Origin: a virus
Lineage: Duplodnaviria > Caudoviricetes
Length of the DNA stretch: 64,000 nucleotides
Virus record (IMG/VR): IMGVR_UViG_3300037424_000485
Coordinates: 140,432-204,431 of that record
Direction: 5' to 3' (one strand)
The notes beneath the pieces were generated by a model that was not told the origin of the DNA, searched no databases, and worked only from the letters and a program-made list of their open reading frames with translations. Every line of letters begins with the position of its first letter. Position 1 is the stretch's first letter. Made by a program: the position numbers and the translations under genes. Shown here one piece after another: positions 33,237 through 58,369 of the stretch.

Positions 33237-34100
33237 TTATTTGCATTTAAGCTGATTATATTTACAGCCTTCTTGTTTATGCACTGCTTTATGACATTTT
33301 TTACATAATGTAATACAATTATCTATATCTGTGCTCTCAATCGGGTTGATTTCTATGCCCTCATAATGGTGACAGTGTAAGTTTGATACTGAGTCACATT
33401 TTTGGCATGTCCAGTTGTCTCTTTCTAAAACTAATTTTCTTAGTTGTGCCTGTACTTCTCTTGTGTATTTATTGTTCTTATGTCCTTTGGGATATTTTAT
33501 CCGACCGTAAATATCACAACTACCCTTACATTCTTCAGAGCAATAAAATCTACAATCACCAGCCCCTCCATTTATAGATCTTATCCTATGTACCAAATCA
33601 TTTACTATAGGTATATGCCATTTATTACAATAGGTGCATCTTACTTCTAATATGTTTTCATCATCAGGGTATCTTCTTGTTTCTTCACAAAAATCTAACT
33701 GATGTGAGTATGTATCATATAATGGGATTGTTTTATATCCACCCTTCCACATATAACAATTTTTACCAGATTTTTTATGCTTAGTTTCTGACTGAACTTT
33801 AATCATTGCTAAACTTCTTTTTTTCTTCGTTTCTTTTGATTTGTTTGTTATTTTTTGTTTATTAGCAGCATTTTTCCTTTTCTCTACATCATCACCATAA
33901 GGACTTTTATGTTTTATTTGGCAAGATCTAGAACAATAAGTAGAATTTTCTTTTTGTGTTAGATATGGATCATTACAATATAGACAGCTTTCATTCTCTG
34001 TATAATATGTTATACCGCCTTTTTCTCTATATTGTTTATATAGTTGATCTCTTTCCTTATTATATTTAAAATCATTAATATTATCCCAACATATTCTCAT
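33237..34100 (-). CDS. HNH homing endonuclease, family A copy 1
   Basis: REVQ.QLRKLVLERDNWTCQKC...LHCHH...DIDNCITLCKKCH. Confidence 0.9.
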   Translation of the reverse strand: MRICWDNINDFKYNKERDQLYKQYREKGGITYYTENESCLYCNDPYLTQKENSTYCSRSCQIKHKSPYGDDVEKRKNAANKQKITNKSKETKKKRSLAMIKVQSETKHKKSGKNCYMWKGGYKTIPLYDTYSHQLDFCEETRRYPDDENILEVRCTYCNKWHIPIVNDLVHRIRSINGGAGDCRFYCSEECKGSCDIYGRIKYPKGHKNNKYTREVQAQLRKLVLERDNWTCQKCDSVSNLHCHHYEGIEINPIESTDIDNCITLCKKCHKAVHKQEGCKYNQLKCK

Positions 34101-34123
34101 ATAAATCTCCTATTTAGATTATT

Positions 34124-34193
34124 AAAAATAAGAGGTAGATTGATAAAATAGGTATCAATCAGAGATGGCCATCCTTTTCCCTCTTAATTTATA
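34124..34193 (-). ncRNA. three-way-junction leader RNA upstream of HNH gene
   Basis: TAAGAGG/CCTCTTA closing stem, GGAT-GGCC-ATCT hairpin, GATTGATA/TATCAATC hairpin, U5; covaries with 58295-58369. Confidence 0.65.
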
Positions 34194-34197
34194 GCTA

Positions 34198-34223
34198 GAC
34201 ATTAAACTGTAAGGTTTAATGTC
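34198..34223. promoter_or_regulatory. 10-bp inverted repeat after sheath gene
   Basis: GACATTAAAC-6 nt-GTTTAATGTC. Confidence 0.65.
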
Positions 34224-34230
34224 ATATCTT

Positions 34231-35958
34231 TTAGACTATATCAGTAAGTTCATCAAATGATGCACCAGTTTTTGTAGCGATAAAATTTAATATAATAAAT
34301 TCAGCACTCCTAGTAGGTTTGATAAAAATATTACACCAAAGCTCATTTCTATCCACCCTTTCAGGTGTATTTATTGTGTTATCACATACCACTTTGAAAT
34401 CATATACACCTCTACGAGCTTTAACATCACGTAGGAAAGGTTCAATCATATTAACCAACACTCTACGGGTAGCAGGATCATTAGGTTCAAATAGGAAGTA
34501 TTTGGTAGCTGTAGAGATGGCTTTCTCCATAACCATAAATAGTCTTCTAACATTTACTCTGTTGAAGGCACTTGACTTGTCAAGCATTGTTTTTTGCCCC
34601 CAAGTTACCTTTCCTTGACCAGCAAAAGAAACGATAGAATTGATACCATTACTATAAAGAATGTCTCTTGCGCCTTGTGAAGGATTCCAAGCTAGTTTTC
34701 TAATACCAGTTATAACCCCACGATTAAGACCAGCAGGGGCGAACCAAGGACCAGATACATCATCGGTTTTAGCATAAATACCAGCAACATAACCAGATGC
34801 AGGAACCCATACGTATTTTTTGGTATATCTGTTGTATACTTCAAACCAGTTACCATACAGAGCTGCATAGCTTGTATTGGCATTAAGAGTCTCACCAGAT
34901 GCAAGACCCCTTCTCCAATCACGAAGATTTGTTGTCTCACTACCACGTTGATTTATTACATCACTTTCTTGACAATCTAGAACTACAATGCAGTCTTTTC
35001 TTTCTTCTGCAATAACGATCATATAACGCTTAACATCTTCTGGTTTATCAGAGTCAATCAAGATATTAATATCTGTTTCTTCTGAGTTTCTATACAGATC
35101 AAGAGCATCCATAATATCAGCATTAGAAACCAAATCCCCTTGATTATCAGCACCTGATGAAAAAGTCATAAAATTAGATAGTGTAGATGCACTTAATGAA
35201 ACGCCTATCATTGACGGATCAAGCTTCATTCTAATATATTTTGAATTTTCATTGATAACATTCTCTACGAATTTAGAAGCACCTTGATCATCAATAGCAA
35301 GCTCTAGTGTAGATACGTTCCAGATTTCCTTAGTAACATAGTTTGTTTTTCCTTGATCTTTATACTGAACCATAAGCAAGAAGTCTGTATCTTCTTCAAG
35401 ACGGTCATCAACACTAAGCCATGCAGAACTTGTATTGAAAGATTCATAGGCAACACCACCTGTTAAAATAGATGTCTGTGATGTTCTATCAAGTAATGAA
35501 ATTCTTACATTATTACCCCAAGCACCTCTGGAATTTGCAATAAAGTACATATCCGCACCAGTAAGTCCTTCAGTATGGAATTGATCAGGATCTTCGCTTG
35601 TAAGATCTGATAGCTTATAAGCTGATGATACTTCTGGTGTTCCAGTCCATGAATCATTATTAATGCTACCACCAGCAAATGTTGCAGATGCTGGCATAAC
35701 TCTAGTTGCATAAAGTTTGTTTCCATATTTTAGAAATGCTTCTGCTGATAGCATATCTCTATAACAATCAGAATTAGTGGTAGGATCTCCAAAAGCAATT
35801 ACTAATTCATCTTTATTTGAAACAAAAGTTTGTTTAAGTTCAGATCCTTTATATGTATTTCTAACAATAATTGCGCCTATTGAAGTAGCCACCGCAGGAA
35901 TTGTAGTAGATACATCGACTTCATTTACATCAACTAATGGGCTTAAATAGAATGCCAT
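34231..35958 (-). CDS. tail sheath protein gp18-like
   Basis: MAFYLSPLVDVNEVD; WFAPAGLNRG; FNRVNVRRLF; IKPTRSAEFIILNF. Confidence 0.96.
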   Translation of the reverse strand: MAFYLSPLVDVNEVDVSTTIPAVATSIGAIIVRNTYKGSELKQTFVSNKDELVIAFGDPTTNSDCYRDMLSAEAFLKYGNKLYATRVMPASATFAGGSINNDSWTGTPEVSSAYKLSDLTSEDPDQFHTEGLTGADMYFIANSRGAWGNNVRISLLDRTSQTSILTGGVAYESFNTSSAWLSVDDRLEEDTDFLLMVQYKDQGKTNYVTKEIWNVSTLELAIDDQGASKFVENVINENSKYIRMKLDPSMIGVSLSASTLSNFMTFSSGADNQGDLVSNADIMDALDLYRNSEETDINILIDSDKPEDVKRYMIVIAEERKDCIVVLDCQESDVINQRGSETTNLRDWRRGLASGETLNANTSYAALYGNWFEVYNRYTKKYVWVPASGYVAGIYAKTDDVSGPWFAPAGLNRGVITGIRKLAWNPSQGARDILYSNGINSIVSFAGQGKVTWGQKTMLDKSSAFNRVNVRRLFMVMEKAISTATKYFLFEPNDPATRRVLVNMIEPFLRDVKARRGVYDFKVVCDNTINTPERVDRNELWCNIFIKPTRSAEFIILNFIATKTGASFDELTDIV

Positions 35959-36006
35959 GTGTTTTCTCCTTAATATTGCCTATCTAAGATTCATAAATAG
36001 GTCTTT

Positions 36007-36864
36007 TTATTTACATCTAAGCTGATTATATTTACAGCCATCTTGTTTATGTACTTCTTTATGACACTTTTTACATAATGTAATACAATTGTCTATATCA
36101 GCACTTTCAATAGGATTTATTTCGATACCCTCAAAGTGATGACAGTGTAGTTCTTTTGATGAGTTACACTTCTGACATGTCCAATTGTCACGTTCAAATA
36201 CTATATTTCTTAAATCTGGTTGATCTTTTCTTATTTTTATATCAACATTATTATTTATTAAAGTTGTTATATGTTTTCCAAAAACATAACACTTTTGTCT
36301 ACATTCATCAGAACAGTAAAACAGTCTATTTTCTTTATTTCCTTTAATAGTCTGTACTCTATTATCAACAAGTGATCTCGATGGGATAAACCATTTATTA
36401 CATTTGTTATGATAGCACCTTACTTCTAATATATTTTCATCATCAGGACATCTTCTTGTTTCTTCATATGGCTCTAACTTATGTGAATAAGAGTCGTAAT
36501 ATACATATTCACACCCACCTTTAAATCCAATACCTAATTTACTACTACTTATTTTTCTTCTATGCTCTTTGGAAAGTTTTCTATTATAATTACCGTTTTT
36601 ATAGCCAGACAACATACCCTTCATTATATTACTGTGATTGTTTTTAAATTCCTCTGTATGTTCTCTACCATAAAAAGGGTTTCCATCACCTTCAAAATAC
36701 TCTTTCTTACAATCATTAGAACAGTATGAATTGTTATTTCTTGAGCTTATATATAGCTCTTCACATATAGTACATTCACACAAATATCTTGTTTTATTAT
36801 TGACAAGAAAATTGCCTCTTAAAGATAAACTTAATGTATCTATATTATCCCAACATAGTTTCAT
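36007..36864 (-). CDS. HNH homing endonuclease, family A copy 2
   Basis: Same C-terminal HNH block and CKYNQL.CK tail; ATGA overlap with gp3-like gene. Confidence 0.88.
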   Translation of the reverse strand: MKLCWDNIDTLSLSLRGNFLVNNKTRYLCECTICEELYISSRNNNSYCSNDCKKEYFEGDGNPFYGREHTEEFKNNHSNIMKGMLSGYKNGNYNRKLSKEHRRKISSSKLGIGFKGGCEYVYYDSYSHKLEPYEETRRCPDDENILEVRCYHNKCNKWFIPSRSLVDNRVQTIKGNKENRLFYCSDECRQKCYVFGKHITTLINNNVDIKIRKDQPDLRNIVFERDNWTCQKCNSSKELHCHHFEGIEINPIESADIDNCITLCKKCHKEVHKQDGCKYNQLRCK

Positions 36865-37367
36865 GGTGTTTCGATTTCATATCGATCATACATGAAATTC
36901 ACACTTGAAGCTAAATTCACCTCACCTTCTCTGTAAGACATTGATATCTCTCCTAACATACTAGGCCATACGTTTTTAAAATTTATTGTCATTATAGATT
37001 CTCGCATGTTGTTTAATATATTTAAACTTGCATCAACAACATAATCTGGCCTATCACGACCATATCTATCTTTGTTATTATTTATATAATTTATCCAATT
37101 ATATAATATTTTCCAGTTATCAAAATTATCATCAATAAGAAAATTTACATACCAAGGCTCGTATGATATCCCACCAGAGTCCCAATTGGCCTTACCACCC
37201 ATCCAATTTTGCTCTCTTGTATCTAGCGTTATTGTTGGGAGAACAGATGAAAAAACATTCATTGATAAACTATTAGATTCTTTCAGACTTCCTAGATTAG
37301 GTAGCACAGGAAATAATAATTCAAAATTCTCTGGTGATGATTTATTTAAATTTGTAATATTTGCCAT
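36861..37367 (-). CDS. tail completion / tube terminator (gp3-like)
   Basis: NFELLFP...LPTITL...ISYEPWYVNFLIDDNFDNWKILYNWI. Confidence 0.75.
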   Translation of the reverse strand: MANITNLNKSSPENFELLFPVLPNLGSLKESNSLSMNVFSSVLPTITLDTREQNWMGGKANWDSGGISYEPWYVNFLIDDNFDNWKILYNWINYINNNKDRYGRDRPDYVVDASLNILNNMRESIMTINFKNVWPSMLGEISMSYREGEVNLASSVNFMYDRYEIETP

Positions 37368-37372
37368 ATTAT

Positions 37373-37380
37373 TATTTATA
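37373..37380 (-). promoter_or_regulatory. late promoter TATAAATA
   Basis: Exact box upstream of gp3-like gene. Confidence 0.6.
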
Positions 37381-37384
37381 TATT

Positions 37385-37615
37385 TTATTTTTCATCAATT
37401 GCTAATTGATTAATCCATGAATCATAAACTACTAAATTTCCAAATTTCTGATTCTCTCCCAAAACAGGTATATTGACAGGCAGCCATCCATATTCTTTCA
37501 GTATATGATTTGACTGTCTGTCAAAATTAATAATACCATTATGACTACGTGGTGGATTGCAAGGCCCTTTAACAATTTTATCTTCTTTCACTAAACAATA
37601 TAACGTATCTTCCAT
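37385..37615 (-). CDS. hypothetical protein (fibre-chaperone-like)
   Basis: LKEYGWLPV motif; ORF track. Confidence 0.5.
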   Translation of the reverse strand: MEDTLYCLVKEDKIVKGPCNPPRSHNGIINFDRQSNHILKEYGWLPVNIPVLGENQKFGNLVVYDSWINQLAIDEK

Positions 37616-37624
37616 GTATGTTCC

Positions 37625-39502
37625 TTATTCGTATATTACTGCTATCTTTGATGTAGTTACAACAATAGTAAGTCCATTACTATAAGGTGCATTAAAATCT
37701 AATGTACCTAAAGCCTTTGCTGTATCAATAATAGCAATTAATGTTCCAGATGCTGTTATACTATCATAAATAGTTACAACACCAGCATTGTCTAAATTAA
37801 TTACTCTTTGTAAAACACCAGCACTATTTTTAAGTGTATATGTACCAGGAGTGCCTAAATATCTATATTTAGGATTTGCTGTTAAGTTTCCTAATCTAAT
37901 AATAGATGCCATTCTTACATCCATTGTATTAACAGTTGTATTTCCATTGATATTATTATTTTCAAATCTAATAGTGAGATTTAAAGTATTAGTAGTTGTT
38001 GTCATATTATTCAAAGTATGTAGTAAAACATCATTAATAAAGAAATTTACATAATAAGAACTATATTCTATAACTAATCTTTTTATATTTGTATCCATAG
38101 TGACAACAGAACCCCAATTTCCATTAAAATTTCCTGTTGTTACTACTGTATCAACACCACCTTTTCTACTAACAACCTCTAATAGCAGTCCATTAATCTG
38201 AAAGAAAAAACCATTGTTATCATCAAACGCACCGGCTTTTCTTATATTATTAACATCTGGTGACGTTCCTAATCTTGATATAGATCTAAATTGATTCACA
38301 ACCCCTGATATTTTTCTAGCTCTATCATTAGTTTCATATCTTATTGTTGAGTTTGAGGTAGCACCTGTTGATAGTGTTATTTGACCACTCTGTGTAACAG
38401 ACCCCGTTCCAACTATAGTCTCTGTCCAAAAATTGGTATCTTTAGTTGTATCATTAAATGAAGATCCTATCAATCTAACAGGTGTTGTTGTTTTTAATGT
38501 GCCTAATACATCAACCTCTGCTTTTATTCCGGTTTCTTCATTTACAATACCAGAACTTGTTTTTAATCTTCCCCTGTTGTTTAGTGTCCTAGGTAATGAC
38601 GAAACAATTGGTGCTAATATACCTTGTAGTCTGAAATAGGTAGTTGCTATTGCTGAATCTAGAACTACCCTAATTTTCCAATATGACGAAACAGCCTGTA
38701 CAGTATCACCCGTACCACCATTAATATAATAGTATTGAAAACTATCTACAATATCCCAATTAATACCATCAGTAGATTGTTCTATATATACCATTGCATT
38801 TACATCAGTTTTTAGATTCCACTGAATAGCACCAACACCAAGAGTAGTTGTAGCTGTTCCATTAAATGTATATGAATTTCCTGCATCTAGATTAACTGTA
38901 CTTGAGTTATTAGGATCAACATATATTTTTTGCACAACGGCTGATGCTAAACTATATCCTCCGTCTACAGAAGGTGTTATGTCAACATTTGCATATCCAT
39001 CCCCAATTACCTTTCCTGATATAATAGATCTTGTTGTTTTTGCTGTTGAAGAATCTGTTAATATTTCTCCTATAGGAATATATACAGAACCTCTTTCATA
39101 TTCACTATTGATAGTTTGTAATCTAAGAAATGTTTGATCAGTAATAGATGTATTTGTTAACACTATTCTGATGTATTTTGACCTGGGTGATATTGCAAAG
39201 AATAGAGATCCATCAGTTAATGGATGTACAAAAGTTCTATCAATATTCACACCATCTGATGAATTTTGAAAATAGCAATTTCCTGACAATGCATCTGTTA
39301 TAATATTAACATTAATAGAACCAAAATTTAATACATCTTCCCATTCTCCTATGAATGTCTCACCAGCCGTTAAAGGAACTGTTGATGAATTAACAGTAGA
39401 AACTTCATTATTAATATTTTCTGTAACTACTGGTAATGGATTGCTCAGACCTATCTCAACTCCATCTTCATCTTTTATTTTTGTTGATTGAAAATCTGCC
39501 AT
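37625..39502 (-). CDS. beta-rich virion structural protein with internal duplication and lectin-like domain
   Basis: Two VSTVNSSTVPL / VDPNNSSTVNL-type modules; beta-sandwich-like C-terminal half. Confidence 0.65.
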   Translation of the reverse strand: MADFQSTKIKDEDGVEIGLSNPLPVVTENINNEVSTVNSSTVPLTAGETFIGEWEDVLNFGSINVNIITDALSGNCYFQNSSDGVNIDRTFVHPLTDGSLFFAISPRSKYIRIVLTNTSITDQTFLRLQTINSEYERGSVYIPIGEILTDSSTAKTTRSIISGKVIGDGYANVDITPSVDGGYSLASAVVQKIYVDPNNSSTVNLDAGNSYTFNGTATTTLGVGAIQWNLKTDVNAMVYIEQSTDGINWDIVDSFQYYYINGGTGDTVQAVSSYWKIRVVLDSAIATTYFRLQGILAPIVSSLPRTLNNRGRLKTSSGIVNEETGIKAEVDVLGTLKTTTPVRLIGSSFNDTTKDTNFWTETIVGTGSVTQSGQITLSTGATSNSTIRYETNDRARKISGVVNQFRSISRLGTSPDVNNIRKAGAFDDNNGFFFQINGLLLEVVSRKGGVDTVVTTGNFNGNWGSVVTMDTNIKRLVIEYSSYYVNFFINDVLLHTLNNMTTTTNTLNLTIRFENNNINGNTTVNTMDVRMASIIRLGNLTANPKYRYLGTPGTYTLKNSAGVLQRVINLDNAGVVTIYDSITASGTLIAIIDTAKALGTLDFNAPYSNGLTIVVTTSKIAVIYE

Positions 39503-40116
39503 TATGAACCTCTTATCCAGTTGATATTATTACTATAAATTACAATAGAATCCCATTGACTAGTAAGGACTATATTTGAGTCACCGCTTATGGTTTCTAC
39601 ACCATTTGGAGTTATTGTTACATTCCCAGCTCCTGTTCTAATTATATTATATCTTTTACCTAACAGACCAACAGCTGTTGGTAGTGTTATATCAGTAAGA
39701 TCATTTGCTTCTACTATATCATATGTATAATCAAGTAAAACACTCCCAGAAACAATACTATAATTAGATGCTACTGCATTTTCTGCAATATCTGCCCAAT
39801 ATGCAGCACTTACCATATAACCAGATGTGGCAATAGAATAATTATAGGTACTGTCTAATAGATTAGCAGCACTTACCATATAACCAGATGTGGCAATAGA
39901 ATAATTATATGCCGCTTCTGCTGCACTAACAGATGTACTCATGGCATCTGTTATTGCAGTAGCTACCATAGGTGCTATATTAACTGCTAGAACTGTAGCC
40001 TTAATATGCCTCCCAGAATCATCAGGCTGTTCTCTAGTATCAATAACAGGAATTAATAAATCGTCCCTTATTATTGTTATCTCTGGTGATGAAGATATTC
40101 TTTTTCTATTTGCCAT
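39502..40116 (-). CDS. virion appendage protein with short repeat
   Basis: 2 x YNYSIATSGYMVSAA (63-bp period); C-terminal TLPTAVG...GETISG fibre-type domain. Confidence 0.6.
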   Translation of the reverse strand: MANRKRISSSPEITIIRDDLLIPVIDTREQPDDSGRHIKATVLAVNIAPMVATAITDAMSTSVSAAEAAYNYSIATSGYMVSAANLLDSTYNYSIATSGYMVSAAYWADIAENAVASNYSIVSGSVLLDYTYDIVEANDLTDITLPTAVGLLGKRYNIIRTGAGNVTITPNGVETISGDSNIVLTSQWDSIVIYSNNINWIRGS

Positions 40117-40128
40117 TATATTAATTCC

Positions 40129-41046
40129 TTATTCATATACTATTGGAGTGCCATCATCCCATGTTATAGTAAATTCATTACCACTAACACCCATTGATAA
40201 AAGATAATCAATAATCTCAGGTTCTGTAAATATTTCATAATCTGATAGAACATTACCATCATTATCATACTTAACAGCACTTGTAGCCCATGTTAATATC
40301 TCTTCACTATCATGCCCTATACCACTTAATTGCTCTGTTGTTGTATCTGTAGAGTGTGACCATGCCTCATCTGAGGTATATATTTTTTGTACTACTGTGA
40401 GAACATTACTATCAAGCTTAGTATTGGTGAATAGATATCCATCAACTTTAAATTGTAGATTCCATAATAGTGCTCTATAATTAGCTTCTTCTATATCAAC
40501 AGATGTCTCTTGGCTAGAACTTTCAAGTATGGTTTTTAATTCAAGAGTTTTAGCACCTTGCTCTTGAGTAGCACTATCAGTGTTTATATTCAGTTCAGGG
40601 ATTGTAATTCTTACATAATTTGTTGGTGTGAAATATGGTAAGATCTGCTCAAGGATCTGTGTTAATTCAATTATATACTTAGCGGCTATCTTAACCTCGA
40701 AAGTATATGTAAAAGGCTCTGGATTTGTATATCTAAACGTTTGATTTAGCGTCCTTAATGCCTCTACTTGAAAATGCTTGCTGGTCTTTCTCTCACTATT
40801 ATATTCAACATTGACCATTTGAACAGAGATGATAGGTAGTATTTTATCTCTAACACGCCTACCTTCACTATCAGTCTTTTCTATCCAGTACCATTGTTTG
40901 GATTTTGGAGCCAGCTTAACAGGAACTTTTACATATTTTGTAATATTCCCATTTTTATCATACTTAGCAATCTTAATATCATTAAACATATCAAGAAATT
41001 GTATGATAGTCTTACGCATGATGTTGAAAAAATAATGTGTTTTCAT
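40129..41046 (-). CDS. tail sheath stabiliser / terminator gp15-like
   Basis: HYFFNIMRKTIIQFLDMFNDI...VPVKLAPKSK...QILEQILPYFTP. Confidence 0.9.
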   Translation of the reverse strand: MKTHYFFNIMRKTIIQFLDMFNDIKIAKYDKNGNITKYVKVPVKLAPKSKQWYWIEKTDSEGRRVRDKILPIISVQMVNVEYNSERKTSKHFQVEALRTLNQTFRYTNPEPFTYTFEVKIAAKYIIELTQILEQILPYFTPTNYVRITIPELNINTDSATQEQGAKTLELKTILESSSQETSVDIEEANYRALLWNLQFKVDGYLFTNTKLDSNVLTVVQKIYTSDEAWSHSTDTTTEQLSGIGHDSEEILTWATSAVKYDNDGNVLSDYEIFTEPEIIDYLLSMGVSGNEFTITWDDGTPIVYE

Positions 41047-41052
41047 ATTACT

Positions 41053-41256: not shown

Positions 41257-41261
41257 TTTTA

Positions 41262-49317: not shown

Positions 49318-49323
49318 TAAATA

Positions 49324-50862
49324 TTAGTTTTTTGTTAGCCAGCTCCAATCATCATCTCTCCCATCTATAAAGTCAGTTAGCAACCCCCAACCATCATCTT
49401 CTGTTAGTTCGTTGGCTTTAAACTCAAATTTTTCATCTAAAATGTCCATTTCTAAGAGAAAAATAGCCCAATATAGTGCGGAAACTAAGTCATCATCAAT
49501 ATTAGCACCGCCAAATTTGTTATGACCCTTATCTTGGAAATCTGTTAATTGTCTAACAGTTTCCATATCAACCAATTCAATACTATCATCTTCTATTAAT
49601 TTCTTCATAAGAAGAACAGCTCTTGGTTTTGTATTTCCTGTAGCTCTAATTCCTAATTTAGATTCTTTAGAACCTTCGTTAATAAGATTTGGATTTTCAT
49701 AATCCCACCATAATTTCATAACAACAGGAGCACCCTCACCATTATTCTCACACATGATATGTGCATTATTATAATAGTAACAAGTCCTATTAACAATCTC
49801 AGAAAAGGTGTATGTATCTGTAAAATTATTTTCAAATACAGCTACTTGTTTCATTTTAATAGGTTTTGTACTGTCTATTCGTAATACCTGTATGGTTGAA
49901 TAATGCTCACCAGTACCCTTTGCAACATCAACACCCAAACAATACATGGCACCGGGAACAGGCTTTTCATAAACTCTAAATTTGTTATTAAGATCATACG
50001 TTTCTGGCTCTGGGTAGTGTCGTTTCAATAACACTTCTAATACATTAGAATCAATAACAGTGTTAGAACTACCAATAAAATTTACCATCATTTCTTGTGC
50101 AAATTTTAATTTACCCAAAACACCTAATTGTTCTTTAGCCCATTCATCATCTCTATCTGGATGTGCTGTCCAATCATATTTTATACATTTAAATGCATTT
50201 GTCCCATTTTCAGCCCCTGTATATAATTTATGGAATGTATTAAACATACCTTGTGGTGTTGAAATAATAATAACCTTTGCAGTCTTTGATGATGATATTG
50301 TGGGCCAGTTGGAAGTCCAAAATGAATCTGCTCTTGGAGCAAATGCCATCTCATCTAAAATTAAAAGAGCAAATGTACTACCCCTGAATGCACTATCACT
50401 GGTAGCAGATACTTTTATTTCTGAATGATTTTCAAACTCTACTGCTGTTTCTGCCCATTTAACAACCCCAGGTTTTATCCAAACTGGTAGGAGTTCATAC
50501 ATATTTTTCAATTTCTTTAAAAAATCTATTGCTGATTTTTCTTTATTTGAAGCTATACCTATAACTCTATCATTATGAAATATAGCAAACCATAATGCAT
50601 ATGCAGAAACAAGAATAGACTTCCCTTGTTGACGTGCAACCATTGCGATAGAAAATCTATTGGATATGAAGTGTTTTAATAGGTTTTTTTGAAAATCATA
50701 TAATTCAAATAAAATTTTACCTTTGTCAACAGAAACTATATAAATATAGTTCTCAATGAAGTATAATGGATCTTTTTTACACCTAACTAACTCTTTAATC
50801 TGGTGGGAAGTATATTCGTGCTCTACATCACATGGTTTTACAAAATCTACATTCTTAGCCAT
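49324..50862 (-). CDS. terL: terminase large subunit gp17-like
   Basis: Walker A ARQQGKS, Walker B LLILDEMAF, ISTPQG, nuclease LGVDVAKG and DDLV. Confidence 0.96.
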   Translation of the reverse strand: MAKNVDFVKPCDVEHEYTSHQIKELVRCKKDPLYFIENYIYIVSVDKGKILFELYDFQKNLLKHFISNRFSIAMVARQQGKSILVSAYALWFAIFHNDRVIGIASNKEKSAIDFLKKLKNMYELLPVWIKPGVVKWAETAVEFENHSEIKVSATSDSAFRGSTFALLILDEMAFAPRADSFWTSNWPTISSSKTAKVIIISTPQGMFNTFHKLYTGAENGTNAFKCIKYDWTAHPDRDDEWAKEQLGVLGKLKFAQEMMVNFIGSSNTVIDSNVLEVLLKRHYPEPETYDLNNKFRVYEKPVPGAMYCLGVDVAKGTGEHYSTIQVLRIDSTKPIKMKQVAVFENNFTDTYTFSEIVNRTCYYYNNAHIMCENNGEGAPVVMKLWWDYENPNLINEGSKESKLGIRATGNTKPRAVLLMKKLIEDDSIELVDMETVRQLTDFQDKGHNKFGGANIDDDLVSALYWAIFLLEMDILDEKFEFKANELTEDDGWGLLTDFIDGRDDDWSWLTKN

Positions 50863-51203
50863 CAGTCTACATTCCCACCTAAATCTCTAACATTTTGTTT
50901 CATGTCAGCCACCTGTTGTTGTAGCCTATTCTTCATTACCTTTTCAACATCTGTAGCAACGCCCATTTGTTCTTTAAGAGAGTATTCAAATATGGTATTT
51001 TCTTTTTCCCTGATATCTTTCTTCTCTTGAACGATCTGATATTCCACCATATCACCAGCATGGACATATCTACTATCAATCCAGAATATTGATCCTATTA
51101 TGAATGTTATAATTGCTATGACTCCTGTTATTGATTTGATAGGATTCTCCTTTATATTTTTCCATGCTACAGAGCTTGTAGATGGTATTACATCATCACC
51201 CAT
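50862..51203 (-). CDS. single-pass membrane protein with coiled coil
   Basis: ITGVIAIITFIIGSIFWI hydrophobic segment. Confidence 0.6.
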   Translation of the reverse strand: MGDDVIPSTSSVAWKNIKENPIKSITGVIAIITFIIGSIFWIDSRYVHAGDMVEYQIVQEKKDIREKENTIFEYSLKEQMGVATDVEKVMKNRLQQQVADMKQNVRDLGGNVD

Positions 51204-51213
51204 TTTTACCTCC

Positions 51214-52404
51214 TTATAGGCCAGTTTTTAGTATTGTGTTGCATATAGGCCCTCTTGATTTAGAACCTTGTAATACAATGTGACCATAGTTAGGTTGTCC
51301 TTTAAGCATACGAACTACCCAATTAAGGCCATTATTTTCCGTATTCAAATGGCTATTATCTACTTGGTTTGTATCCCCGTTAATAATACATTTAACATTT
51401 TCACCCATACGTGTCATAATAGTCCTAATTTGGATTCTACTGAAATTCTGAGCCTCTTCTATGATGACTATCGCATTATCGATATTCATGCCTCTCATGT
51501 GGTTAATTGGAATAAATTCAATGTATTTGGGGTTAAGGATAGCATTACCATTCTGAATATCTAAAAATAGCCTGTTAGCATTTCTATCTTCATGAAGAGC
51601 AAGAAGCAAATCTTTCACTGGTTTGAAGAAAGGATCTATTTTTGATTCTAACGTCCCTGGAAGAAAGCCAAGCTCTTTGCCAATTTCTATAGTGTTTTTA
51701 ACAACATATATCTTTCTATATTGCTTCTTCTCTAGGGTTAGATATAAAGCAGAAGCTAATGATATCAAAGACTTTCCTAAACCAGCTGGTGATTGAATGG
51801 ATATAATATCGATCTCGTCATTAGTTATTAAGTGTATAGCCGCATTCTGGTATGCTGTTTTCGGCTTAATTTTCCATACTTCATGGTTTGGTATCAACAC
51901 AGGATCTAAATGAGGATTGAACATATGAAGCTTGCCATCAACAAAACCAAAACAATTTGGTGTTTCATCATCATACTCGTCAACAAACCCCGTAAATCTC
52001 TCAGAATCGCTTTTAAAGGGCATAGACTCTTTAAACTCTTGAGTTACTATGCCATGGTATACATCGGCTTTAAAACGCATTAGAAAGTCAGATGTGACTA
52101 AAATAGGGTTTTCTATTTTAGTGTTAGCGATCTCAGCAAGAATTTTATTGTCGTTGTTATAATTATTATCAGGATGTCCGATTATTTTAATCATGTCCTT
52201 ATATTCTATAAGGTTTTTTATAACTTCTTGAACTTGCGGTCTTAGTTTGTTATCTCTTTTCAGACCATCGAGTTCGTTTATAATAGTATGTGTTAAATAT
52301 ACCTGATTTTTATCTTTACCATCTTCACCATTAGTCAATATTCTTAGCACATCTGGATTGTCTATCAGCACATTTGTGTCTACAATAAAATGTTTCTTAG
52401 CCAT
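51214..52404 (-). CDS. phoH: PIN-PhoH (PhoH2-like) protein
   Basis: FIVDTNVL PIN start; SPAGLGKS; RGMNIDNAIVIIEEAQN; GDTNQVD. Confidence 0.92.
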   Translation of the reverse strand: MAKKHFIVDTNVLIDNPDVLRILTNGEDGKDKNQVYLTHTIINELDGLKRDNKLRPQVQEVIKNLIEYKDMIKIIGHPDNNYNNDNKILAEIANTKIENPILVTSDFLMRFKADVYHGIVTQEFKESMPFKSDSERFTGFVDEYDDETPNCFGFVDGKLHMFNPHLDPVLIPNHEVWKIKPKTAYQNAAIHLITNDEIDIISIQSPAGLGKSLISLASALYLTLEKKQYRKIYVVKNTIEIGKELGFLPGTLESKIDPFFKPVKDLLLALHEDRNANRLFLDIQNGNAILNPKYIEFIPINHMRGMNIDNAIVIIEEAQNFSRIQIRTIMTRMGENVKCIINGDTNQVDNSHLNTENNGLNWVVRMLKGQPNYGHIVLQGSKSRGPICNTILKTGL

Positions 52405-52432
52405 TTAAACTCCTTGAGTGTATGTTATTTAT

Positions 52433-52993
52433 CTACTCCACAATTTCGGCATCTTCAGCGTCTTCAGCTTGTAATTCACATATTTGTTTTAATAGATCCT
52501 CTCTACTACTGATAATAATATTGTTTTGTGTTATACTCCTCCCCCCGCCCTTGAGCGTGTCTTTTAATGCTACTTGCTGTTCTTTTATATCCAACTCCCT
52601 AGATTTATGTTCTAATACTTGTTGATTATAAGATTCACCCATTATAGAGCTTGATGCCGTAGTAATGGCATTAATAAGTCCCGCCATAACTTCTATGCGT
52701 CTATTATCAAGACCCCCTGTTAGAAATGATTCTTCAGCTTTATCTAATATTCTGTTTGCTCTTTCTATGTTTTGGTGTAGAATTGTGTCAGCGTCAGGAT
52801 GGGCATTTTTAGCAAGAACTTTTATTTCTTCTCTTAGCTTTTCTATTTCCTGTAGTTGGGTATCAGTATTAATTACTTGGTCTGGTATGGCTATTGATTT
52901 TGAGGTTCTATCAACATTGAACAGGATATCTAAACTATTGGTGTTTAGTTGGGGTTCTGCCTTGTCGGAATTATATTTATTATCTTCTATCAC
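52433..52993 (-). CDS. probable terminase small subunit (gp16-like), GTG start
   Basis: SD AAGGAG before GTG at 52993; NRRIEVMAGLINAI resembles T4-like TerS; upstream of TerL operon. Confidence 0.55.
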   Translation of the reverse strand: MIEDNKYNSDKAEPQLNTNSLDILFNVDRTSKSIAIPDQVINTDTQLQEIEKLREEIKVLAKNAHPDADTILHQNIERANRILDKAEESFLTGGLDNRRIEVMAGLINAITTASSSIMGESYNQQVLEHKSRELDIKEQQVALKDTLKGGGRSITQNNIIISSREDLLKQICELQAEDAEDAEIVE

Positions 52994-53022
52994 AGTATTC
53001 TCCTTATACATCTTGGTATATG

Positions 53023-53054
53023 TATTTATATGAAATTGTATGTTTATATTTATA
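53023..53054 (-). promoter_or_regulatory. two late promoter boxes
   Basis: TATAAATA at 53023-53030 and 53047-53054. Confidence 0.6.
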
Positions 53055-53141
53055 TTTAAATAAATAATAAATTTTCTTAACATACCCTGTAAAAGTAGTA
53101 TATTGTATTATATCAAGTGAACATTAACAAAGGAGACAACA

Positions 53142-53357
53142 TTGTCTTTAAAATTAACTTATATGAATCCAGAAGGTATGACAGCTCTTGAAATGGAAGA
53201 AGAGCTTTTAAAGGTTTTTAATTCATACCCTGAATATAATGACAAGTCATTCTTTAAAATGGTGGAGTTATTTGCAAATGATGATTTTTTTCATTTGCAT
53301 CTAGTAGCTAAAGAATGTCTTAAAGATCCCTTTTTTAAAGAGCTATATACCAACTAA
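53142..53357 (+). CDS. hypothetical protein
   Basis: SD AAGGAG, TTG start; possible promoter TTAACA-16-TATATT at 53077-53104. Confidence 0.6.
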   Translation: MSLKLTYMNPEGMTALEMEEELLKVFNSYPEYNDKSFFKMVELFANDDFFHLHLVAKECLKDPFFKELYTN

Positions 53358-53381
53358 TAACCATCACATGGAAGGTGAAGT

Positions 53382-53581
53382 ATGAGAGAACCATATAAAA
53401 ACCCACAGTAAAATTGTTAGGAACAGATGGCAATGCCTTTGCTGTTCTTGTGGTAGTCAGACGAGCTTTGAGGAAAGCGGGAGCCGATGCAGAGTATGTG
53501 TCAAAGTACACTGCCGAGGCAAGGTCAGGAGACTTTGACAATCTTCTGCGAGTGTCCATGAAGTACGTGGATGTGAAATAA
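53382..53581 (+). pseudogene. conserved small phage protein with a frameshift in an A5 run
   Basis: MREPYK then -1 frame KPTVKLLGTDGNAFAVL...SGDFDNLLRVSMKYVDVK; SD GAAGGTG. Confidence 0.65.
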
Positions 53582-53718
53582 CAACTAATGGGGTGTAGAC
53601 CCCTCATAACTTTAGAAAAGTTGGCTGTGCATATGTTGTTGGACTCAGCAGGAATTAAGGGGATGTCATAATAAATAAACATACACAAAAACAACAGTAT
53701 TCCTGGTAGGGGATTATT

Positions 53719-53952
53719 ATGCCGAAAACAAAAAGAGACACCCGTTTATCGTTAAGACTATTGTGTGATGACAGCAACGACAATTTTATTGTAAGATATT
53801 CAAACCAAGGGGAACCATTCCGTGAAGGTGTCGAAATCGGAGTGGAAAACAGGGAGTTTGAAAAAGAAGTGATTGTAACGCTGATAGATGGTGAAGCAAG
53901 GCAGTTAAGAGATTTACTTATTCGCCTTTACCCTATCAACATCAAAGGTTAA
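53719..53952 (+). CDS. hypothetical protein
   Basis: SD GGGGA; ORF track. Confidence 0.6.
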   Translation: MPKTKRDTRLSLRLLCDDSNDNFIVRYSNQGEPFREGVEIGVENREFEKEVIVTLIDGEARQLRDLLIRLYPINIKG

Positions 53953-53981
53953 CAATGGAATACTAATAAGGAGATTTACCA

Positions 53982-54191
53982 ATGGCAAGTCATAAATCAG
54001 TGCAACTTGATGGCAGAACTTACAACCTGTTTGAGAAGAGCATACAAGTTGAGGGTATTGCTAAGTTTGTATTTTTCACAAGACCAGTGAATATGGCTGA
54101 TGTAATTCTTCTTCATAGCATCTATGAATTAGGCAGAAAGAATGGCAAGAATGAAGTTGCTGATGTTATTAAAAATATACTTGGGATGTAG
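53982..54191 (+). CDS. hypothetical protein
   Basis: SD AAGGAG; ORF track. Confidence 0.65.
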   Translation: MASHKSVQLDGRTYNLFEKSIQVEGIAKFVFFTRPVNMADVILLHSIYELGRKNGKNEVADVIKNILGM

Positions 54192-54199
54192 TATAATTA

Positions 54200-54940
54200 T
54201 CAACATTTATTCCTTCTCATGTCGCAATGCTTATGAACAGCATTATGACATTTTTTACACAATGTAATACAATTATCAACATCAGCAGACTCGATAGGGT
54301 TAAGTTCTACACCTTCGTAGTGATGACAGTGTAATTGAGTGTAAGAATCACCACATTTTTTACATGTCCAATTGTCTCTTTCTAAAACTAGTTTTCTTAA
54401 TTGGGGTTGTACTTCTCTACTATTATTAATATTTATATTGAAATCTCTTGGATGTTTTTTCTGTCCATATATAGAACAATTATTTTTACATTCATCAGAA
54501 CAATATAAATTCTGACCCCCTTTAGATATATTTGTTATAGATTGAATTCTACGTCTTACATCTGTTGTTTTTGGTACAAACCAACACTTGCAATGATGAC
54601 ATACAACCTCTAATATCTCTCTGTTATTATGAGATCTACGTGTTTTTTCATATAATGATATTTGATTATTATATGTATCAAATGATGGTATATTACTTTT
54701 AGTTATACCACCCTTCCATACAGGATTACCAATTCCCATATTAGAACAATGGTTGCTGCATGTATTGATACTTTTCATATGTTGTTTCTTGATAAAATAT
54801 GGATCGCCACATATTATACAAGATTCAATCAATATAAAACTATCCTGTTTACATTTACCATCTATTCGTCTAAAGATAGTATATCCTGTTCTTCCTTTAG
54901 TTATCCTATAATTATCTATATTTTCCCATGATATAACCAT
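54200..54940 (-). CDS. HNH homing endonuclease, family A copy 3
   Basis: REVQPQLRKLVLERDNWTCKKC...LHCHH...DVDNCITLCKKCH. Confidence 0.88.
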   Translation of the reverse strand: MVISWENIDNYRITKGRTGYTIFRRIDGKCKQDSFILIESCIICGDPYFIKKQHMKSINTCSNHCSNMGIGNPVWKGGITKSNIPSFDTYNNQISLYEKTRRSHNNREILEVVCHHCKCWFVPKTTDVRRRIQSITNISKGGQNLYCSDECKNNCSIYGQKKHPRDFNININNSREVQPQLRKLVLERDNWTCKKCGDSYTQLHCHHYEGVELNPIESADVDNCITLCKKCHNAVHKHCDMRRNKC

Positions 54941-54946
54941 AATAGT

Positions 54947-54975
54947 ATTATATTAGATTATATGTTTAATGTCAA
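54947..54975 (-). promoter_or_regulatory. perfect sigma70 promoter for HNH copy 3 (leaderless)
   Basis: TTGACA-17 bp-TATAAT, ATG 6 nt downstream; 20-bp palindrome 54965-54984 over the -35. Confidence 0.75.
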
Positions 54976-54981
54976 GACATT

Positions 54982-55015
54982 AAAAAACCCCTTGACAATT
55001 AAGCCAAGGGGTTTT
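54982..55015 (-). terminator. intrinsic terminator after major capsid gene
   Basis: AAAACCCCTTGGC-TTAATT-GTCAAGGGGTTTTTT. Confidence 0.9.
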
Positions 55016-55020
55016 ATACT
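54992..55020 (+). promoter_or_regulatory. sigma70 promoter embedded in terminator, antisense to capsid gene
   Basis: TTGACA-17 bp-TATACT. Confidence 0.55.
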
Positions 55021-55040
55021 ACAGGTTTAGTTTCTATCTA

Positions 55041-56375
55041 TTAATCGAAATTATTTACGACTATTGTCTGATAGAAATTTTGAGAACCAAACATGTGTTC
55101 ATGGATGGCATAACGACTCATCAGACCAACGGTAGGTTGGAATGAATCTTCGTAAGTTGCTTTACTTGCCATCAACTGAATGTATGGAAGATAAACAACA
55201 CCAGTGTCATACTCAGAAGGCCCTTTGTAACCGATAAGGATAGAATCATTAGCGGTAGTATGGAAGGTATCACGATAAACGTTCAATCTACCATCAAGAG
55301 AACCTACACGACTCACACCAGTAACACCAGAGTTAATATCTGTTGATACAGGAGCGATAGTGAAAGCACTGGTTGCTTCAAGAGCAGCTACCATATTCGG
55401 AGAACAAACAGCGTAGTTACCTGCGCCTCTACGGGTAGTTACTGCAATACGGTTGGTTTTACGGATTACATAGTTGTAAAGGTTACGATAAACCTCTGCT
55501 TCCCATCTACCGTTGAAATCAGCACCAGAAGAACCCCAAGAATTGAAATCAAGAGTAGTTACGTTGCCATTACCAACTGTACAAAGAGAACGAATTTTAG
55601 CAATAAGCTCCCTATCAATCTCAGCGGTAATTTCGTAAGCAAGAACGTCCATCATTTCTTCTTCAAGATTCAGACCGTGCATAGCTTTAAGATCCTGGGC
55701 AACTTCCATTGACCAACGACTTCTAAGCTTACGGGTCTTAGCTTCTACTTGCGCTTTCTCAATTGTCATGCTAAGTTCAGCAATCTCTTGGTTAGTACCG
55801 ATACCAAGGCCACGATTGGCTACTGTAGCATCAGAACCAAGAGCCTCGCCAGCAGCAGCAGAGAGAGTCTGATTTCTTACATCATCACCAGAGTAGTAAG
55901 GATTTACAGCGTTATACCCAATCTCGTTAGTTATGGTATTACCGTAACTATCTTTGTTTACAGGATTGGTTGTGCTTTCAGCACCAGCATCATAAGTTGA
56001 AGAACCACGAAAACGAAGTGCAAACGCAAGACCAACAGGGCCAGTCAGCGGTTGAACACCTACGATATCATGAGCAATCAACTCAGGAAAGGTTCTACGA
56101 ACCATAGGAATGGCGATTTTATGAAACTCACCAGATCCGATAGTGCCAGGAGTACCATAACCAGTACCAACACCAGCAGCAGTACCGATACTATTAGCAC
56201 CAATAGCAACTGCTTCACTAATATCTACACCACCATTAAGATGGGTAGCCTCATTGTTTAACATGATAGCGGTCGCTCTACGAATCTTCTCAGATTTGTA
56301 AGTAGCTCCCTCATCAAGTACATCTTTCCAAAAATCAACTATACCATTAATATAGTTTTTATTACTTTTATCCAT
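55041..56375 (-). CDS. major capsid protein gp23-like (start MDKSNK)
   Basis: IPMVRRTFPELIAHDIVGVQPLTGPVGLAFALR; KTRKLRSRWSMEVAQDLKAMHG; EITAEIDRE; SD AGGAGG. Confidence 0.97.
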   Translation of the reverse strand: MDKSNKNYINGIVDFWKDVLDEGATYKSEKIRRATAIMLNNEATHLNGGVDISEAVAIGANSIGTAAGVGTGYGTPGTIGSGEFHKIAIPMVRRTFPELIAHDIVGVQPLTGPVGLAFALRFRGSSTYDAGAESTTNPVNKDSYGNTITNEIGYNAVNPYYSGDDVRNQTLSAAAGEALGSDATVANRGLGIGTNQEIAELSMTIEKAQVEAKTRKLRSRWSMEVAQDLKAMHGLNLEEEMMDVLAYEITAEIDRELIAKIRSLCTVGNGNVTTLDFNSWGSSGADFNGRWEAEVYRNLYNYVIRKTNRIAVTTRRGAGNYAVCSPNMVAALEATSAFTIAPVSTDINSGVTGVSRVGSLDGRLNVYRDTFHTTANDSILIGYKGPSEYDTGVVYLPYIQLMASKATYEDSFQPTVGLMSRYAIHEHMFGSQNFYQTIVVNNFD

Positions 56376-56388
56376 TATATTATTCCTC

Positions 56389-57300
56389 CTAGTTCCTTTT
56401 ATTAAGTTCAATCCATTGCTTCTTTTGAAGTTCCCAAGGTGAAAGACCTGTCCCTTCATTCATTTTAGGTTTTTCAGATTTAGTATGTCCTACTTCAACA
56501 TGACCTTTACCTTCTTCAACCTTTTTACCGCCTTTCTTTTCAGTCAATGTCATCTTTTCGCCGCATTCAGGACAAGTAAGATCATCACCTTCTTTAATCT
56601 CAGCAGATGCCCCACACTTCTCACATGTATAAGAACTTACATCACCCTTATCATCTTTAGGCTCATCTTCTTCAGTAATTTTTTTGATGTCCATAGATTC
56701 GATAATAAATCCGAATTTCTTATCAATGCTTTCTTTAACAGTCTCATCACCTAGAATACTGATAACATGACTTTTTTGTGATTCGGTAAGTCCGTCACAT
56801 TTCTTACGAAGATAGATATGAGCAGCCATTTCTTGAGCATCTTGTTCAAGAGTAAGAACTTTTTTAGTAGACTTGTTGCAGTCTTCTTTAAGTTTAATAA
56901 TCTCATTCTTAGCTTCTTTAAGAAGACTTTGAACTTCATTATTAAGAGCACCCTCGTCAATAGCAAGACGAATTTTGAATTGCTCAATAAGATCATGATA
57001 TAATTCGCCAAGTTTGGCATATTCTACAACTTTCTCAGGAATTTTAACTTCCTCGTCAAGGATAGAATCTACAAAATTTGAGAATTTGCTAGTAACCTCA
57101 TCTTTATAAGTTTCAAACTTACTTTCAAGCTCTTCTGTTAAAGCATCTTTCGCGGCTTCTAGTTCTTTTTCAATTCTTTCAGCAACCAGTGATTGAGCTT
57201 TTGACTCTATAATGGTTTCAAGTTTGTTTTTAATCTCTGCTTGAGCAGATTCTTCAAGTTTATTAGCTTGAAGCATTTCTAATACTTTGGTAAGATCCAT
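56389..57300 (-). CDS. prohead scaffold (gp22-like) with zinc-ribbon insertion
   Basis: Coiled-coil acidic protein directly upstream of MCP; CEKC...CPEC near C-terminus. Confidence 0.85.
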   Translation of the reverse strand: MDLTKVLEMLQANKLEESAQAEIKNKLETIIESKAQSLVAERIEKELEAAKDALTEELESKFETYKDEVTSKFSNFVDSILDEEVKIPEKVVEYAKLGELYHDLIEQFKIRLAIDEGALNNEVQSLLKEAKNEIIKLKEDCNKSTKKVLTLEQDAQEMAAHIYLRKKCDGLTESQKSHVISILGDETVKESIDKKFGFIIESMDIKKITEEDEPKDDKGDVSSYTCEKCGASAEIKEGDDLTCPECGEKMTLTEKKGGKKVEEGKGHVEVGHTKSEKPKMNEGTGLSPWELQKKQWIELNKRN

Positions 57301-57343
57301 AAATTTTTCCTCCTGAAAAAAGTATAATTTGTTTTGTTACTAT

Positions 57344-57351
57344 TATTTATA
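57344..57351 (-). promoter_or_regulatory. late promoter TATAAATA
   Basis: Exact box upstream of scaffold and MCP. Confidence 0.7.
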
Positions 57352-57406
57352 TAAAATTTAATCTATATCTAAAAAGTTAAATTTTATAGATATATTAATA
57401 CAAAAA

Positions 57407-58273
57407 TTATTTACATATTAGTTGATTATATTTACATCCTTCTTGTTTATGTACTGCCTTATGACATTTTTTACATAGTGTTATACAATTGTCTATATCA
57501 CATGACTAAATTGGGTTATTTATTACAGGGTCTATATGATGACAGTGAAGATTTGATACTTCGTTACACTTCTGACATGTCCAATTATCTCTTTCTAAAA
57601 CCATCTTTCTTAATTGTGGTTGTACTTCTCTTGTTATACTTCTAGGATTTAAAAAACTTTTAGGAAATAGTTTTTGATTGAATAAATCACAATTACCCTT
57701 ACATTCATCAGAGCAATAAAATCTATTTTCAGATCTATAATTAATATTTCCTTTTATATTTTGTATCCTACTTCTAACAGATGTTCTTTTTGGTATATAC
57801 CATTTATTACAATATGTACATCTTACTTCTAATATGTTTTCATCTATTGATGATCTTTTAACTTCTTCATATTGATCTATTTGGTTTTTATATACATCAA
57901 ATGCGGGTATATTATTTAATCTATATCCGCCTTTCCAGAAATTACAATTATCACCACTATTTGATAAATATGACTTTCCTTTTTTGCCTTTACTTATTTT
58001 CAAACAGTGATCTTTTGTTTTTTTATATCTAAGCTTATCTTTTGTTTCTTCTGTATGTTTATATCCATTTCTTGAACATGAATATGAACAATATATACCT
58101 ATTCCTTTTTTAACATTTTTTTTAAATGCTAAGAATTCATCACCACATTTTTTACAATTACATATAAGAAACAATTCAAATAAACTACTTTTACTATTTC
58201 TTTTTCTAAAATATCCTTTAGATGTTATATACTCAAACTCTTCTAGATCTTTATATGTCTTAGGTATCAACAT
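57407..58273 (-). pseudogene. HNH homing endonuclease, family A copy 4, premature TAG
   Basis: NPI-TAG(57506-57508)-SCDIDNCITLCKKCH...NQLICK stop; paralogs have Glu here. Confidence 0.85.
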
Positions 58274-58294
58274 ATAATCTCCTTACTAAGATAT

Positions 58295-58369
58295 AAAAAT
58301 AGGAGTAAGATAGTTAAGTAAGTAACCATCACAAGGGAGCTACCCTTTGTCCTCCTAATGTTATTTATA
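58295..58369 (-). ncRNA. three-way-junction leader RNA upstream of HNH copy 4
   Basis: TATAAATA box, TAGGAG/CTCCTA stem, AAGGG-TAGCT-CCCTT, GATGGTT/AACTATC, U5. Confidence 0.65.

Follow-up and report, generated by a model that had tools for sequence, protein, structure and literature searches.

Judged by comparison with homologous sequences, two leaders of about 60 nucleotides (nt) in front of HNH nuclease genes of a phage are real copies of a widespread, uncatalogued leader RNA family. The DNA analysed here (the window) is a stretch of 64,000 nt, bases 140432-204431 of the 204,431-base-pair (bp) virus record IMGVR_UViG_3300037424_000485. Both leaders lie on its minus strand, site A at 58299-58358 and site B at 34128-34187, and each comprises a closing stem, P1, and two hairpins, P2 and P3, joined in a three-way junction. 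Across the family, the entire P3 loop (6-7 nt, starting C-Y) is complementary, in antiparallel orientation, to a stretch that terminates with the first AGG, AAG or CGG of the downstream Shine-Dalgarno (SD) sequence, and this complementarity persists while the loop sequence differs in nearly every copy. We consider it likely that the leader is a portable translational attenuator acting in cis, which would dampen nuclease synthesis constitutively and independently of context through an SD-occluding pseudoknot.

The leader family and its association with nuclease genes

Upstream regions of HNH relatives were fetched from IMG/VR, where clearly homologous junctions were found. A covariance model built from three other contigs, without site A (R1), recovered site A (27.3 bits, E 2.5e-4), the copy of another contig and, with filters off, site B (19.6 bits, E 0.002). 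A second model, built from eight sequences (R2), detected 21 copies in 14 of the 43 IMG/VR records that carry HNH relatives, 58 copies in viral and metagenome loci retrieved by a P1/junction pattern, and 42 further copies among loci retrieved with a different P1 sequence. The family thus totals about 100 copies on IMG/VR and metagenome contigs, and three or four copies per contig are common. When R2 was run on the phage's own genome, only site A (59.2 bits) and site B (55.6 bits) matched. Both belong to class I, the form fused to a gene, by their R2 scores, their covarying stems and a loop complementary to their own SD flank. A looser pattern used for the first collection gave mostly chance matches among those listed and was replaced by tighter ones; a weak R1 match at window positions 29617-29669 was likewise judged to be chance. 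The only true copy in a scan of genome contigs came from a 3-kb contig that had been assigned to a Thermotogae metagenome-assembled genome, which is too weak a link for naming a host.

Rfam returned zero matches for the window at the gathering score, and 11 leaders scanned at E <= 10 gave no match to int-alpA (RF02996) or to any ribozyme or riboswitch family, the best other matches lying far below their cut-offs. By Rfam's own model, the leaders are not members of int-alpA. A preliminary description of this DNA had not recognised the fold as that of a named family, and the scan, made with Rfam 15, is in agreement with that. No description of the leader was found in the literature searched, and a 2023 catalogue of about 10,000 viral candidate RNAs (PMC10690425) could include it unnamed.

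The fold is demonstrated by covariation among homologues. MAFFT alignments were not structure-consistent, and all counts were therefore taken from model-based or gap-free alignments. In a model-based alignment of 58 distinct sequences, 94.8% of the cells are paired compared with 82.0% in shuffles; the pairing drops to 38.9-58.8% when the partners are slid by one to three columns, and 15 of the 19 stem pairs are changed on both sides. P3 is 99.6% paired, with eight of its nine pairs doubly changed, and P1 varies coherently (GGAG/CUCC, AGAGG/CCUCU, UAAGG/CCUUA and others). Hardly any variation is seen in the junction bases G-A-C and C-U-N-A. P2 has a G-U pair that persists in 49 of the 58 class I sequences and in 12 of 12 sequences of class II, a stand-alone sister form described below, and conserved G-U pairs are found in P3 as well. 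All three stems covary in this alignment, so that the three-way junction with compensatory changes, first proposed from sites A and B only, holds for the family.

The same is true of the self-complementary loops noted earlier on the first hairpin of the two sites (AGCU and GGCC), which reflect a family-wide tendency. Of 17 distinct P2 loops, 10 contain a 4-nt palindrome; shuffles gave 4.0 +/- 1.5, and among P3 loops the count is 2 of 40. Six palindromes were seen (GATC, GGCC, AGCT, GTAC, CGCG and TGCA), and paralogous copies in one contig usually carry different ones. Such loops would fit homodimeric kissing or a bound factor, both of which are possible.

The association with nuclease genes is shown by the collected loci. 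An SD and a start codon follow within 75 nt in 54 of 56 class I copies, and nearly all copies immediately precede a homing-endonuclease-type gene of the same strand. Among 39 downstream proteins, HNH domains account for 21, NUMOD3 for 14 and GIY-YIG for 4; other matches are to endonuclease I, Vsr/TnsA-like and zinc-ribbon domains. The leader had been regarded as a mobile RNA of this one HNH family. It does travel with homing-endonuclease cassettes, but it is not tied to HNH, as it also precedes GIY-YIG, NUMOD3-rich and endonuclease-I-like genes. Behind a few copies the gene is broken or missing, as is to be expected of cassettes in decay. One truncated copy (G042:C1:66118-66177), which has neither the P1 3' arm nor the linker, lies directly before a virion-type gene, possibly as the remnant of a nuclease cassette since lost. 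The stop codon of the upstream reading frame lies no more than 12 nt from P1 in 26 of 38 copies. The idea of a leader peptide that begins behind the SD-like P1 arm was dropped, as start codons are not conserved.

Pairing of the P3 loop with the Shine-Dalgarno flank

The pairing between the P3 loop and the SD flank is shown by the co-variation of the two strands from copy to copy. At site A the loop CUUACU faces AGUAAG, and at site B CCUAUUU faces AAAUAGG. Full Watson-Crick complementarity to their own target is seen for 37 of 40 distinct P3 loops. When the loops were set against the targets of other copies, only 5 of 1560 combinations matched in full, and the maximum in 2000 permutations was 5. 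A validation set with another P1 sequence supplied 17 further distinct loops, for which the mean complementary run was 6.35 nt with the matched and 3.73 nt with the mismatched target. In a gap-free alignment of 12 sequences, the pseudoknot helix is 100% paired, and six of its seven pairs are changed on both sides. One copy maintains this helix by a G-U wobble; together with the conserved G-U pairs in P2 and P3, this indicates that the constraint acts on RNA. A conserved A-A-A-Y-Y-U motif stands before the 3' strand of the pseudoknot, and in most copies 8-12 nt separate the end of the helix from the start codon. Roughly 3.2 of the 6.7 SD bases with an anti-SD partner, or about half, fall inside the pseudoknot, whose mean helix energy is -6.3 kcal/mol compared with -10.3 kcal/mol for SD:anti-SD. 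The earlier proposal that the RNA affects the ribosome-binding site is therefore upheld by a covarying helix between the P3 loop and the SD.

The attenuation that we propose would work as follows. About 60 nt are folded into the junction at the 5' leader of a free-standing homing-endonuclease gene. P1 contributes a purine-rich, SD-like 5' arm and a CUCCU-like 3' arm, GAC leads into P2, P3 is stacked on P2, and CUNA leads back to P1. The P3 loop (6-7 nt) pairs 10-15 nt further downstream and masks about half of the SD. This pseudoknot would compete with binding of the 30S subunit and so keep translation of the nuclease low, whichever transcript the cassette enters, and the closed junction would pre-organise and insulate the anti-SD loop. 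Both copies in the window follow highly expressed virion genes, those for the prohead protease and the tail sheath. Locally, the fold with its late-promoter box and its run of five U residues (U5) might also form the 5' end of a late transcript and be a weak terminator of read-through.

The leader could instead be a regulated switch, in which the junction senses a small ligand, an RNA-binding protein of phage or host, temperature or a terminating upstream ribosome and the pseudoknot serves as expression platform, so that nuclease synthesis would be confined to a particular condition; we think this unlikely. The near-invariant G-A-C and C-U-N-A, the retained G-U pair in P2 and the reuse of the scaffold in class II would all suit a sensor, and a ribosome terminating within 12 nt of P1, as the upstream stops of 26 of 38 copies would permit, would cover the P1 5' arm. 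That short distance, however, may simply reflect compact insertion, and the downstream genes share no metabolite logic. The search for alternative pairings also spoke against a switch. An upstream decoy for the P3 loop gave full matches in 0 of 39 copies, with means of 0.58 for matched and 0.64 for mismatched comparisons; the AAAYYU linker neither covaries with the start of P3 nor has an alternative partner; and no second, mutually exclusive conserved pairing of the kind needed for two states was found. The two-state switch of the preliminary description, for which no conserved decoy or anti-pseudoknot pairing was seen, is not supported.

In that description, the 3' arm of the closing stem (CUCCU) toggled between the P1 5' arm and the SD, as an attenuator or on/off switch of translation in conjunction with the U-tract. 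In every copy the P1 3' arm is indeed complementary to GGAG, the P1 5' arm itself being SD-like, and the minimum-energy fold of the whole site B leader pairs the P1 3' arm and U-tract with AAAUAGGAG. This complementarity, however, follows automatically from a P1 of GGAG/CUCC and has no covariation of its own: where P1 changes (AGAGG, UAAGG, GGGAG, CGAG), the SD does not follow, and the SD flank covaries with the P3 loop instead. As the U-tract is also absent in 53 of 56 copies, we regard the toggle as very improbable, and the closing-stem arm gives way to the P3 loop as the partner of the SD.

Sites A and B in their genomic setting

The virus record has 32% G+C and belongs to a far-T4-like phage, and the window contains T4-like virion genes. 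The nearest cultivated relatives of the phage share only 33-39% identity in the tail sheath. Its DNA occurs in sediment metagenomes, and no RNA run was among the sequencing runs listed for it. Neither megablast nor blastn detected relatives of the loci or of the leader among cultivated phages, and the tblastn matches of the HNH protein, in Bacillus and Staphylococcus phages, were confined to the short HNH motif. The window contains no tRNA-like gene according to ARAGORN, the eight tRNAs of the genome being located elsewhere.

About 18 paralogues of one HNH family are present in the genome, with near-identical nuclease ends and several swapped N-terminal modules, and many of them are wedged between essential genes. 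HNH proteins A and B share 46% identity. Site A and HNH gene A (57407-58273, minus strand) are flanked by the prohead-protease gene and the scaffold gene. The reading frame of gene A (57509-58273, 255 amino acids) is broken by an in-frame TAG at 57506-57508, inside the HNH motif and at the position that holds Glu in the paralogues; beyond it, 32 codons are intact (57410-57505) up to the stop at 57407-57409. No suppressor tRNA is encoded in the genome, where TAG is used as a stop. From its sequence, gene A is a recent pseudogene or yields a truncated product. Site B and HNH gene B (33237-34100, minus strand) are flanked by the tail-sheath and tail-tube genes; gene B is intact, with 287 amino acids and a Pfam HNH match at residues 232-276.

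The strings quoted in the preliminary description are present letter for letter on the minus strand at 58295-58369 and 34124-34193. The order of elements is the same at both sites: a TATAAAT(A/T) box, P1 of 6-7 bp, hairpins P2 and P3, U5, the SD and the ATG of the HNH gene. At site A, the late-promoter box TATAAATA (58362-58369) overlaps the TAA stop (58365-58367) of the prohead-protease gene. P1 is formed by UAGGAG (58357-58352) with CUCCUA (58305-58300), followed by P2 at 58350-58331 with loop UAGCU and P3 at 58330-58309 with its loop at 58322-58317, and U5 (58295-58299) lies directly 3' of P1. The 3' strand of the pseudoknot (58287-58282) overlaps the SD AAGGAG (58284-58279), the start codon being at 58273-58271; the loop-SD duplex is complementary at 6 of 6 positions, with -4.0 kcal/mol.

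At site B, a late-promoter-like box, TATAAATT (34186-34193), abuts or overlaps the P1 5' arm. Here UAAGAGG (34186-34180) pairs with CCUCUUA (34135-34129), P2 occupies about 34178-34161 with loop GGCC, P3 lies at 34160-34138 with its loop at 34152-34146, and U5 follows P1 at 34124-34128. The 3' strand of the pseudoknot (34115-34109) overlaps the SD UAGGAG (34112-34107), upstream of the start codon at 34100-34098, and the duplex is complementary at 7 of 7 positions, with -5.0 kcal/mol. Site B is among the 12 sequences of the gap-free alignment with its fully (100%) paired pseudoknot helix. Its first hairpin is degenerate, with four pairs plus mismatches, and the family's GAC junction reads GAA. 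For both elements taken in isolation, RNAfold gave the three-way junction as the minimum-energy fold. As the z-scores are only moderate (-2.7 for A and -2.0 for B), folding energy alone proves little, and the proof lies in the homologues.

The TATAAATA sequence is the T4 late-promoter consensus and recurs before many SD and ATG starts of the genome. The box that had been reported with the fold is present at site A, but it is not a family trait: only 13 of 56 copies have a TATAAAT(A/T) box within 15 nt, at a distance of 1-11 nt before the complete junction, and in the same tally the distance from box to element is -2 at site B. By the established T4 rule for promoter-to-start spacing, the predicted transcript start (+1) of site A would be A58356, at the base of P1, and that of site B would be G34180, the last base of the P1 5' arm. 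With a +1 at G34180, the site B transcript would lack most of the P1 5' arm. In the boxed copies, a T4-type start is mostly predicted at the base of P1, and the anti-SD loop is always downstream of the predicted start.

The U5 run likewise follows the fold in A and B, as described earlier, and fails as a family feature: a run of at least four U residues after P1 occurs in only 3 of 56 copies, two of which are A and B. The family is therefore not a U-tract attenuator or terminator by design. It would still be conceivable that in this phage the leader is mainly a branched intrinsic terminator or insulator, which would halt the heavy late transcription of the protease and sheath genes short of the nuclease gene; to us this has little probability. 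U5 stands directly after P1 in both window copies, and both downstream virion genes have TATAAATA boxes of their own. Terminators of the T4 genes mobE and segF are known (PMC2988022). Elsewhere in the window, at 4930-5022 on the minus strand between open reading frames 5027-5551 and 2683-4917, a very stable branched structure (-30.9 kcal/mol, z -6.1) is followed by U5. However, the closing stem of the leader bounds a branched fold and has only three or four G-C pairs, a simple terminator scan calls neither site, and it is the fold and pseudoknot, not the U-tract, that the family conserves. U5 of site A is a possible weak terminator or attenuator.

The structure at 4930-5022 falls outside the leader family by the models and resembles a Y-shaped terminator. 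An 11-bp hairpin at 34198-34223, straight after the tail-sheath stop and upstream of the promoter box of site B, possibly stabilises the 3' end of the sheath message or terminates it. Upstream of another HNH paralogue, at 54203-54940, a canonical G+C-rich terminator and a TTGACA-N17-TATAAT promoter without a late box were seen at 54941-55040 (minus strand), and from this sequence the gene is probably expressed early from a host-type promoter. Five further paralogues (genome positions 106-107 kb, 31 kb, 54 kb, 78 kb and 122 kb) have another leader in common, which consists of TATAAATA, one hairpin with varied sequence and kept pairing, and then a conserved UCUAACCACAAUCUACUUU.AAGGAG linker.

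Several observations weigh against translational attenuation as set out above. As gene A is broken by a stop, leader A may no longer be under selection. Site B has a degenerate P2, and its full leader is predicted, at minimum energy, to form another SD-masking hairpin, made by the P1 3' arm and the U-tract. Repression may be modest, because some half of the SD lies outside the pseudoknot, which is also the weaker helix when compared with SD:anti-SD pairing. Finally, a plain attenuator would have no use for GAC, CUNA, the G-U pair of P2 or the palindromic P2 loops, and these features hint at a partner, which could be a protein, a ligand or a second RNA.

The stand-alone sister form and known systems

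Among the loci retrieved with the different P1 sequence, about a dozen elements (class II) have the scaffold of the leader but are not fused to a gene. Each follows a TATAAATA box and ends in a U-rich tail, the complement of which is another TATAAATA in convergent orientation. Their stems are 93.4% paired, with 14 of 18 pairs doubly changed. P2 is longer than in class I, and its loop carries ACUCC and 3-6 more bases. This loop is complementary to the SD and spacer of an oppositely oriented neighbour, over 7.6 nt in matched compared with 4.6 nt in mismatched combinations, and the mRNA leader of the neighbour would be antisense to the class II junction. A class II covariance model built from other contigs only (R3) gives 49.2 bits (E 2e-12) for a minus-strand element at genome positions 85114-85179, beyond the window. 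The copy adjoins an HNH paralogue of opposite orientation (h86k) and lies between two convergent TATAAATA boxes, and its P2 loop AUCACUCC is complementary to GGAGUGA in the SD/spacer of that gene. Another R3 match, at window positions 37235-37294, was weak, lay within a coding region and was judged to be chance.

Class II bears on a further alternative, namely that class I sites are small RNA genes, each producing a late RNA of about 65 nt that acts in trans, as class II may do, or dimerises through the P2 loop. A +1 predicted at the P1 base, for site A as well as for the majority of boxed copies, the U5 tail, the existence of stand-alone units with a loop complementary to the neighbour's SD, and the concentration of palindromes in P2 loops rather than P3 loops would all be in line with such a gene. 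Most class I copies, however, have no box and no U-tract, every one is joined to its downstream gene with constant spacing, and the predicted +1 of site B removes the P1 5' arm. We would give this alternative only a slim chance. A more tentative idea, which we hold to be possible though rather doubtful, is that the GGGACAG...CUNAC junction is a general, modular 'anti-Shine-Dalgarno presenter' of selfish-nuclease cassettes in phages, used in two topologies, either with P3 forming a pseudoknot in cis, as at sites A and B, or as a separately transcribed small RNA with its P2 loop on the SD of the oppositely oriented neighbour, as in class II. The conserved junction, the G-U pair and the self-complementary P2 loops would in that case dock a shared factor, or be a signal for dimerisation, and thereby time nuclease expression. 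If true, class II would add an antisense layer to the control of homing endonucleases.

Leaders that sequester the ribosome-binding site of T-even genes were reportedly described by Gott in 1988 and by Gibb and Edgell in 2007 and 2009. SD-sequestering structures restrain the T-even homing endonucleases I-TevI, I-TevII, I-TevIII, segB and Aeh1 mobE, and embedded late promoters, autorepression and internal terminators have been documented for such genes (PMC2988022, PMC3014915). The present leader resembles them in pairing with the SD in cis from the 5' side of a selfish nuclease gene, in a T4-type phage with TATAAATA late promoters, and its presumed purpose, by analogy, would be the same restraint of the nuclease. 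The T-even structures, however, are simple and gene-specific hairpins, whereas here one conserved junction of about 60 nt with a pseudoknot occurs in about 100 copies and with nuclease genes of several families. The late promoter of the T4 genes is embedded in the hairpin, and late transcripts escape repression, whereas here the box, where there is one, is upstream of the whole structure and late transcripts would retain the anti-SD loop.

Pseudoknots that occlude the SD are found in the SAM-II and preQ1-II riboswitches and in the leaders of T4 gene 32 and ribosomal protein S15. T4 gene 32 is mentioned in the paper on viral candidate RNAs (PMC10690425). Similar to these RNAs, the leader places a pseudoknot at the ribosome-binding region, with an upstream scaffold that has conserved junction bases. 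It differs from them in that the gene context implies no ligand or protein and in that no conserved alternative conformation is seen. Antisense control initiated by loops is known from CopA/CopT, RNAI/RNAII and divergent type I toxin-antitoxin pairs such as IstR-1/tisB. An antisense RNA over a homing-endonuclease gene has also been described in cyanophage S-PM2 (Millard 2010, as cited in PMC10690425). Class II, including the copy beside h86k, is comparable to these as a putative small structured RNA that has its own promoter and a loop complementary to the SD/spacer of an adjacent, opposite nuclease gene. It is unlike them in using the scaffold of a cis leader, in carrying the anti-SD on P2 and not on P3, in lying between two convergent late boxes, and in being predicted from sequence.

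In large lytic phages, homing endonucleases make up the main class of selfish genes. How such nucleases avoid harming the phage is, to our knowledge, understood for only a few T-even genes, each of which has a simple hairpin specific to it. The occurrence of one leader across unrelated nuclease families and many uncultured phages, with a loop that co-evolves with each SD, points to a transferable way of quieting a toxic passenger. The more than 50 distinct loop/SD pairs provide a natural test set for the tuning of initiation by pseudoknots, and the leader is a candidate new Rfam family for the annotation of phage genomes. It may also be of use in synthetic biology as a compact, programmable damper of translation.

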